Of a stretch of DNA of 7,351 nucleotides, positions 1,869 through 2,181 are shown piece by piece. The notes beneath the pieces are model-generated. The model ran no database searches, was not told the origin of the DNA, and saw only the letters and a list, made by a program, of their open reading frames with translations. Every line of letters starts with the position of its first letter. The first letter of the stretch is position 1. Origin of the DNA: a virus (lineage: Duplodnaviria > Heunggongvirae > Uroviricota > Caudoviricetes); IMG/VR virus record IMGVR_UViG_2693429524_000006; one strand, written 5' to 3'. The position numbers were made by a program, and so were the translations under genes.

Positions 1869-1912
1869 TTGATTTTAATATTTCTTCGCGTTTATCATTA
1901 CCTTTGCGGTAA
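1869..1912 (+). promoter_or_regulatory. leader promoter of antirepressor B (TTGATT-N18-TATCAT) with TTACC-N5-GGTAA repeat abutting the -10
   Basis: -35 at 1869-1874, -10 at 1893-1898, inverted repeat 1898-1912; mirrored on the minus strand at 4980-5023. Confidence 0.5.
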
Positions 1913-2004
1913 ATTTACATCGCACTCCTCTTGTGCCATAGTAATCGGGCACTGGCAAAATCCAGTGCCGGGATTGGCGTCCCGGATTACTAAAAGGCGC
2001 ATTC

Positions 2005-2024
2005 ACCGCGCAAGCGGTTTTTTT
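2005..2024 (+). terminator. intrinsic terminator or attenuator inside the antirepressor B leader
   Basis: ACCGC-GCAA-GCGGT hairpin (GNRA loop) followed by 7 T; copy C has a different stem sequence (CCACG/CGTGG) with the same structure. Confidence 0.6.
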
Positions 2025-2039
2025 ATGCGTATAGCACGG

Positions 2040-2125
2040 CCACATTCGTATTATGGTGGGCTGTGTGGGGGCACCGAAAGGTGCGCCGGGTCCTTTTAGC
2101 CGGTTACGCCAACCCTGCACAGTTC
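2040..2125 (+). ncRNA. candidate c4-like antisense RNA domain (ImmI-type); boundaries approximate
   Basis: GNRA hairpin 2071-2084; hairpin 2086-2103 whose loop CCTTTTAG (2092-2099) is complementary to CTAAAAGG at 1990-1997 and at the SD 2166-2173; ACGCCAA (2106-2112) complementary to TTGGCGT at 1974-1980 and 2138-2144. Confidence 0.45.
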
Positions 2126-2181
2126 ACCACCAACCGATTGGCGTCGGTAGTGGTGATTAACCAGACTAAAAGGTAACCACT

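Follow-up and report, generated by a model that had tools for sequence, protein, structure and literature searches.

Antirepressors decide the induction of resident prophages. In phages P1 and P7, earlier work showed that the antisense RNA c4 represses the antirepressor gene ant; the C4 family, its three-site logic and its covariance models became public between 1990 and 2010 (P1 record; Weinberg et al. 2010, PMC2864571). The annotated P1 genome carries, in this order, the C1 operator Oc4, the promoters P51a and P51b, the sites a1 (7 nucleotides, nt) and b1 (8 nt), the 77-nt c4, the sites a2 and b2 and the start of icd; the a1 and b1 sites are labelled putative in the record. P1 and P7 are heteroimmune through c4 (review PMC12197685); they lie 2 nt apart in a and 2 nt apart in b, all six sites being changed to match. 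Here we describe the leaders of two antirepressor genes in a 7,351-nt stretch of a virus of the Caudoviricetes (IMG/VR record IMGVR_UViG_2693429524_000006), the whole of which is called the window below. On its sequence, the leader of ant B (module B) is an unannotated member of the known c4 family, with the minor variant features of direct ant control without icd and of two convergent orthogonal modules, the second of which (module A) precedes ant A. Very probably, a P1 immI-type RNA control module stands ahead of each antirepressor gene and works as in the scheme proposed below.

The isrK-orf45-anrP region of Gifsy-1 provides a second point of comparison. There the "helix b" of IsrK was defined by two compensatory mutant pairs, G28A/C162U and G31A/C159U, and a1:a' pairing controls translation of the antirepressor (PMC4825925). 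IsrK supplied in trans raised antirepressor translation ~140-fold and the long transcript ~8-fold, and an RNA of ~80 nt, STnc1160, is processed from the read-through transcript (PMC4825925). Hfq binding by IsrK and trans activation of the downstream antirepressor are known for Gifsy-1 only (PMC4825925). Lysogens with silent lytic genes express both IsrK and STnc1160 at high levels (PMC7067206), as would be expected of an immunity RNA.

The elements of module B are the following:

1869-1942, plus strand: tandem sigma-70-like promoters, TTGATT-18-TATCAT (1869-1898) and TTTACA-17-CATAGT with an upstream TG (1914-1942)
1898-1912, plus strand: operator-like palindrome TTACCTTTGCGGTAA in the promoter region, of the TTACC-N5-GGTAA family, with a putative operator function
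1949-2025, plus strand: IsrK-like a1b1 RNA, consisting of hairpin 1, hairpin 2 with a1, single-stranded b1 and an intrinsic terminator (Rfam isrK model, fold)
1974-1980, plus strand: a1, TTGGCGT (exact string match; covariation with a' across leaders)
1990-1997, plus strand: b1, CTAAAAGG (exact string match; b1:b' runs across leaders)
2005-2025, plus strand: intrinsic terminator, ACCGCGCAAGCGGT followed by a T run, between a1/b1 and c4 (terminator scan, covariation)
2055-2131, plus strand: predicted mature c4 RNA, 77 nt (Rfam C4 model; ends by alignment to the annotated 77-nt P1 c4)
2092-2099, plus strand: b', CCTTTTAG, in the loop of c4 hairpin 2 (Rfam model, string match, fold)
2106-2112, plus strand: a', ACGCCAA, in the single-stranded c4 linker of 8 nt (Rfam model, string match, fold)
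2125-2156, plus strand: a2 hairpin, with a2 (TTGGCGT) in its loop at 2138-2144 (fold, inner-stem covariation)
2166-2173, plus strand: b2, CTAAAAGG, which includes the Shine-Dalgarno AAGG of ant B (string match, covariation)
2182-2877, plus strand: antirepressor B, 231 amino acids, Bro-N plus the shared C-terminal module (Pfam Bro-N, E 2e-21; anti-repressor in the annotation of phage TL-2011b)

A preliminary description, made from the letters of this leader, had placed in it two short elements, each as target, complement and second target. All six coordinates were returned exactly by string search, and TTGGCGT, ACGCCAA, CTAAAAGG and CCTTTTAG have no further occurrence across the 7351-nt window. 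When 1905-2181 was shuffled 5000 times with its dinucleotides preserved, an ordered copy/complement/copy triple of any 8-mer arose in 2 shuffles and two different 7-mer triples in 3; the six-site arrangement is not produced by chance. The way in which the sites were thought to be displayed also agrees with models and folds. The CCGGGA/TCCCGG hairpin that exposes a1 is hairpin 2 of the isrK model, b' occupies the loop of a GCCGG/CCGG hairpin (Rfam model and fold), and a2 sits in the loop of a CACCAC..CCGA/UCGG..GUGGUG hairpin whose predicted inner stem covers the two end bases of a2, while a' is left unpaired in the single-stranded linker of c4 (Rfam model and fold). The overlap of b2 with the Shine-Dalgarno holds as well: AAGG lies inside b2 and the ATG of ant B at 2182 follows 8 nt downstream, both antirepressor genes beginning 8-10 nt past b2.

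The same description had named the C4 and IsrK models of Rfam as a check, and in module B both score above their gathering scores: isrK (RF01394) at full length over 1949-2024 on the plus strand (77.9 bits, gathering score 50) and the C4 antisense RNA (RF01695) over 2049-2134 on the plus strand (77.7 bits, gathering score 45; model positions 1-87). Module A gives a full-length isrK match at 4943-4867 (67.7 bits) and a C4 match at 4841-4757 (61.2 bits, again model positions 1-87), both on the minus strand and above the same gathering scores. Folding of the leader and of its mirror copy, likewise proposed there, yields minimum free energy (MFE) and centroid folds of 2055-2131 and 4835-4760 that share the topology of P1 c4. 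In both modules this shape, predicted with high confidence, comprises a closing stem of 16-17 base pairs, a GAAA tetraloop hairpin, the b'-loop hairpin, the a' linker (8 nt) and a 3' ACC tail, with fold energies of -45.1 kcal/mol (z -4.5) for c4 of module B and -40.7 kcal/mol (z -5.5) for that of module A.

To collect related leaders, viral contigs were searched for a pattern in which the IsrK core is fixed and the a1 loop left free; the 120 loci found reduce to 73 distinct leaders (alignment A1), to which the counts below refer. They contain 3 a alleles (TTGGCGT, TTGGTCT, TTAGCCT) and 19 b' loops (~17 b specificities) in 25 combinations. Pairing of a1 with a' is complete (7/7) in 72/73 leaders, and that of a' with a2 in 73/73; counted over the alignment, 99.8% and 100% (a':a2) of cells are paired, with three pairs changed on both sides, and sliding the partner by 1-3 columns as a control brings pairing down to 14-52% of cells. 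Cognate runs, with G·U allowed, extend over 7-9 nt for b1:b' and 7-12 nt for b':b2, compared with medians of 4-5 nt for non-cognate partners. The two common a alleles occur with CTAAAAGG and CTAAGTGG in all four combinations, and since a and b alleles thus reassort, a single inherited event does not account for the co-changes. Differences among the three b copies of a leader, where present, are compatible with G·U pairing: b1 CTACAGAGG and b2 CTACAAAGG face b' CCTTTGTAG, and in a second case b1 CTAAACGG and b2 CTAAGCGG both match b' CCGTTTAG. For 19/19 b alleles b2 overlaps the Shine-Dalgarno or the start codon (the start codon itself in three). The structural frame is maintained in the same manner. 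The c4 closing stem covaries, the stem of the terminator between b1 and c4 is kept by compensatory changes next to an invariant T7 run, and the inner stem of the a2 hairpin appears as CCGA/TCGG, CTGA/TCAG, GAAA/TTTC and AAGA/TCTT. Taken over the mirror copy and these leaders, covariation supports RNA pairing at all three sites.

The sole exception to the a1:a' rule among the leaders, L074 (11101-11381, minus strand), is a natural chimera. Its a1/b1 read TTGGTCT / CTACAAAGG, its own c4 has a' ACGCCAA and b' CCGTTTAG, and the junction falls within the terminator; the a1/b1 unit would match the c4 of other sampled phages and not its own.

The mirror copy on the minus strand, module A, is made up as follows:

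4950-5023, minus strand: promoter-like sites and an operator-like palindrome at 4980-4994 (consensus scan, palindrome search)
4866-4943, minus strand: IsrK-like a1b1 RNA with a1 TTGGTCT at 4918-4912, b1 CTAAGTGG at 4902-4895 and a terminator at 4889-4866 (Rfam isrK, terminator scan, fold)
4760-4835, minus strand: predicted c4 RNA, 76 nt, with b' CCACTTAG at 4800-4793 and a' AGACCAA at 4785-4779 (Rfam C4, fold)
4718-4753, minus strand: targets, a2 TTGGTCT at 4753-4747 in a hairpin loop and b2 CTAAGTGG at 4725-4718 over the GGAG Shine-Dalgarno
4051-4707, minus strand: antirepressor A, 218 amino acids, AntA plus the shared C-terminal module (Pfam AntA, E 4e-26)

Between the two modules all six sites are altered in concert (a TTGGTCT and b CTAAGTGG versus a TTGGCGT and b CTAAAAGG), and module A is a natural compensatory experiment for the pairing in module B. 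The distance of 2+2 nt equals that between the specificities of P1 and P7, here found between two modules of one genome, and cross-combinations have 1 or 2 central mismatches in both short helices. Duplexfold on the exposed segment gave -25.9 and -27.7 kcal/mol for the cognate partners versus -18.3 and -23.3 kcal/mol, values of little weight since the calculation opens the hairpin stems. At 7/7 loci with two modules, the modules differ in a', b' or both. From the sequences, the two antirepressors of the window would be gated independently of each other, and two orthogonal RNA locks on antirepressors with a common C-terminal module suggest independent triggers.

Three c4 modules are present on contig IMGVR_UViG_3300045988_096329 (L053, L056), with ACGCCAA/CCTTTTAG, AGACCAA/CCTTTGTAG and ACGCCAA/CCTTTGTAG as a'/b'; two of the three are distinguished by a alone.

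That the order of elements resembles P1/P7 c4, as first proposed, is borne out by an alignment in which the leader follows the annotated immI region of P1 all the way from promoters to start codon, with the same 7- and 8-nt sites. Operator, tandem promoters, a1, b1, terminator-like hairpin, c4, a2 and b2 over the ribosome-binding site are collinear, and the position of the module B palindrome matches the C1 operator Oc4/Op51. The differences concern what is controlled and where: b2 lies on the Shine-Dalgarno of ant itself, whereas in P1 it lies on the icd ribosome-binding site with ant1/ant2 coupled behind; two convergent modules are present per genome instead of one; the antirepressors of the window are Bro-N and AntA proteins; and the host phage is an epsilon15/phiV10-like podovirus-type prophage, unlike the P1-like plasmid prophage. 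P1 itself scores 68.8 bits with C4, 51.0 bits with c4-a1b1 and 35 bits with isrK, the last match being sub-threshold and including the terminator-like hairpin between b1 and c4. Since P1 matches c4-a1b1 and, below threshold, isrK with its hairpin, its a1/b1 unit is the same thing as the IsrK-like unit.

Gifsy-1 likewise has isrK and then C4 matches upstream of its antirepressor, with a terminator between the a1/b1 unit and c4 (c4-a1b1 score 48.1 bits). Its a1, UUGGCGU, is that of module B and spans U26-U32 from the transcription start, and its a' spans A158-A164; G28:C162 and G31:C159 are therefore a1:a' base pairs. The b code, AUCACCG, is different from those of the window. Over the Gifsy-1 c4 an open reading frame (ORF) runs for 45 codons with its stop overlapping the antirepressor start, while the corresponding frames of modules B and A have 35 and 3 codons. 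Neither c4 nor P1 nor RNase P is named in the Gifsy-1 paper (PMC4825925). In the searchable literature we found no statement that the IsrK/orf45 pairing is identical with a1:a' of c4, nor of how large the a x b code is. Because the defining Gifsy-1 mutants fall on a1:a' pairs, they link two lines of research that, in the searchable texts, leave each other uncited, and a testable role for a1/b1 follows.

In P22 immI, the opposite strand at the ant ribosome-binding site gives rise to the sar RNA, which is thus a true cis-antisense RNA. The regulator described here, in contrast, would share the strand of its target, lie upstream of it and pair via two short separate elements. The likeness to sar lies in an RNA that blocks translation initiation of an antirepressor gene (PMC12197685); the same review classes sar as trans-acting. 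Satellite P4 offers a parallel of another kind in its CI RNA with seqA and seqC, by description a small RNA processed from an untranslated leader with complementary sequences on both sides (PMC4825925). CI acts via transcription termination on the P4 immunity genes and not on an antirepressor.

By analogy with homologous systems, translation of ant B would be gated by its leader RNA. The sites, folds, family memberships, collinearity with P1 and covariation were found at the locus itself, and from the stop at the terminator onwards we infer the steps for it. Transcription would start near 1949, from the tandem promoters that flank the palindrome resembling a repressor operator. Most transcripts probably end at the terminator 2005-2025 and would give an IsrK-like RNA of ~77 nt with a1 in a loop and b1 single-stranded. 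As the terminator lies between a1/b1 and c4, release of the a1/b1 unit as a separate IsrK-like small RNA of this length is most likely, a refinement beyond the preliminary description. Transcripts that read through would contain c4 (2055-2131), a2 in its hairpin loop, b2 over the Shine-Dalgarno and ant. From these, c4 would be cut out as a stable, tRNA-like RNA of 77 nt, its 5' end being made by RNase P as in P1. Pairing of the b' loop and the a' linker of c4 with b2 and a2 would then hide the ribosome-binding site and keep the antirepressor off in the lysogen. The a1/b1 RNA may act as a target mimic, either an anti-antisense decoy that competes for c4 or a means of sequestering c4 in cis within the precursor, and the ratio of terminated to read-through transcripts would set the switch. 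Module A would follow the same scheme in its own code (a TTGGTCT, b CTAAGTGG), so that the two antirepressors may be gated independently.

More tentative, and rather doubtful when taken as a whole, is the joint proposal that a dedicated, co-transcribed anti-antisense RNA titrates c4 (with IsrK and c4-a1b1 being one) and that a and b form a combinatorial code with orthogonal channels. If true, terminator read-through would set an RNA-versus-RNA ratio that decides antirepressor synthesis, the a1/b1 sites of P1 would gain a function, and the IsrK and c4 literatures would merge. At least 3 a alleles and ~17 b specificities would reassort freely, giving 2-3 mutually orthogonal channels per phage in front of antirepressors whose N-terminal domains differ, and chimeras such as L074 could unlock the antirepressor of a co-resident prophage in trans.

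Several observations weigh against the immI-type scheme. The c4-a1b1 model (RF03163, gathering score 46.7) stays below its gathering score in both modules, at 1936-1988 in module B (45.1 bits, E 4e-9) and at 4956-4904 in module A (37.6 bits, E 8e-7), although both near misses overlap isrK matches that do pass. The 73 leaders are close relatives only, since the collecting pattern fixes the IsrK core. RNAcofold of c4 with its targets gives a free-energy change of ~0 and thus no net gain; as the tool forms loop-loop kissing contacts only by opening the stems, the value is uninformative and does not count as a negative. The searchable literature yielded no expression, processing or reporter work on this locus or on phages of the phiV10/TL-2011b type. 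In Gifsy-1, a constitutive orf45/STnc1160 fragment strengthened IsrK toxicity (PMC4825925), a result not foreseen by a simple trans-repressor model. The construct is an imperfect test, however: it starts at the second AUG and so leaves out the 5' half of the c4 closing stem, and it contains a2/b2. Finally, the Gifsy-1 authors invoke a structural switch in cis together with orf45 translation, and no processed antisense RNA (PMC4825925).

This last model, a purely cis-acting switch without a processed trans-acting repressor RNA, is the most serious alternative, though we consider it unlikely. In it, a1/b1 pair with a'/b' in the read-through mRNA, which is inactive until a short IsrK-like RNA displaces the helix in trans and translation of an orf45-like frame opens the ant start. 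The genetic and structural data for such a switch come from Gifsy-1, which has the same architecture (PMC4825925), and in the MFE fold of the whole module B leader the a1 and a' regions do pair in cis. As its start codon orf45 has the AUG of the conserved AUGGUGGG at the 5' edge of c4, and from the corresponding AUG at 2053 module B has an ORF of 35 codons. This frame is however not conserved: it closes after 3 codons in module A and, in most of the 73 leaders, after 14-37; only 13/73 have it open as far as the extracted leader goes, near the ant start, and in module B (2053-2160) it stops 21 nt short of the ant ATG. In orf45 itself the nucleotide sequence is conserved and the amino-acid sequence variable, according to the Gifsy-1 authors, and a stable processed RNA of ~80 nt is present in that phage (PMC4825925). 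RNase P-type cleavage at the P1 position would moreover take off the AU of the conserved AUG, and the cis switch leaves a2/b2 without a role, although they covary with a'/b' as tightly as a1/b1 do. Coding or coupling of the orf45 type was rejected as a general mechanism, and does not apply here, with frames of 35 and 3 codons and an open frame in 13/73.

The immI-type scheme also assumes that c4 acts by occluding the ant ribosome-binding site. In P1, blocked icd translation leads to premature Rho-dependent termination before ant, and one may ask whether c4 acts mainly on transcription here, too. P4, in which the CI RNA causes termination by pairing with seqA and seqC (PMC4825925), is a further precedent, and IsrK in trans raised the long Gifsy-1 transcript as well (~8-fold; PMC4825925). 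We nevertheless regard this as improbable, as b2 lies on the Shine-Dalgarno of ant itself with no icd-like gene between, which makes a direct translational block the simplest reading; transcriptional and translational effects are not mutually exclusive. Least credible of all, and very improbable, is a reading in which a protein recognizes the repeated 7-mers and 8-mers as DNA, for example as operators or recombination sites. In its favour, operators are typically short repeated or inverted motifs near promoters, and the window does have a separate family of operator-like palindromes. The predicted transcription start, however, is upstream of both a and b, and in two covariance-model families these sites occupy defined unpaired positions. 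Furthermore, the b variants keep G·U-type complementarity to b', which is sensible for RNA only; the DNA-operator reading was rejected on this tolerance of G·U pairs in the covariation.

As to the signals around the modules, the promoter calls are consensus matches from a consensus scan, and both module B sites recur in the mirror copy; the second module B promoter is predicted to start transcription near 1949. The motif TTACC-N5-GGTAA occurs 6 times in the window versus 0.18 expected (172-186, 273-287, 1805-1819, 1898-1912, 2950-2964, 4980-4994). These palindromes are probably operators of one phage repressor, by analogy with the C1 operator Oc4 of P1. Two copies are situated within the promoter regions of the c4 modules, and the rest precede the ORFs 328-963, 1784-1056 (minus strand) and 3025-3204.

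The window is most like epsilon15/phiV10-like E. coli prophages, the closest phage being TL-2011b with 99.2% identity over 67% of the window; close relatives come from O103:H25 and O157 hosts, that is, pathogenic E. coli backgrounds. Searched with the whole window, complete E. coli genomes and phages gave no record with a coverage above 79%, so the exact source is absent from those collections. Neither the TL-2011b record nor a near-identical RefSeq E. coli prophage contains an RNA annotation in the leader. For annotation this means that a complete immI-type module, present twice, is without an RNA gene in near-identical public records.

The C-terminal module common to ant A and ant B is an inverted repeat of 279 nt with 96% identity (2622-2900; 4028-4306). 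A third copy at 1-122 belongs to another antirepressor gene, which is cut by the window start; the copies share 96-97% nucleotide identity and, in ant A and ant B, follow different N-terminal domains. An additional ORF at 5142-5489 encodes a P22_AR_N antirepressor domain and is not preceded by a c4 module. Between the convergent antirepressor genes lie a YafO-like toxin ORF (3179-3724; Pfam E 8e-6) and a small overlapping ORF upstream of it (3025-3204). A 62-nt direct repeat (996-1057 and 3940-4001) with a terminator-like hairpin at its end follows each cargo block.

Two structural observations concern the leaders themselves. In the consensus fold, GUGGUG at 2151-2156 pairs with CACUAU at 2178-2183, which takes in the AU of the ant B start codon and leaves b2 and the Shine-Dalgarno in a loop; this helix is conserved, almost without covariation. 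Alternatively, GUGGUG can pair with CACCAC to close the a2 hairpin; CACCAC doubles as the 3' strand of the c4 stem, and a three-way competition is possible. The second observation is a sub-family of six leaders (L015, L020, L025, L027, L097, L098) with an insert of ~40 nt between the IsrK terminator and c4 (A1 columns 100-145). The insert contains TATAAT and may be a separate c4 promoter. In these six, the frame that opens at the conserved AUG continues up to where the extracted segment stops, near the expected ant start.

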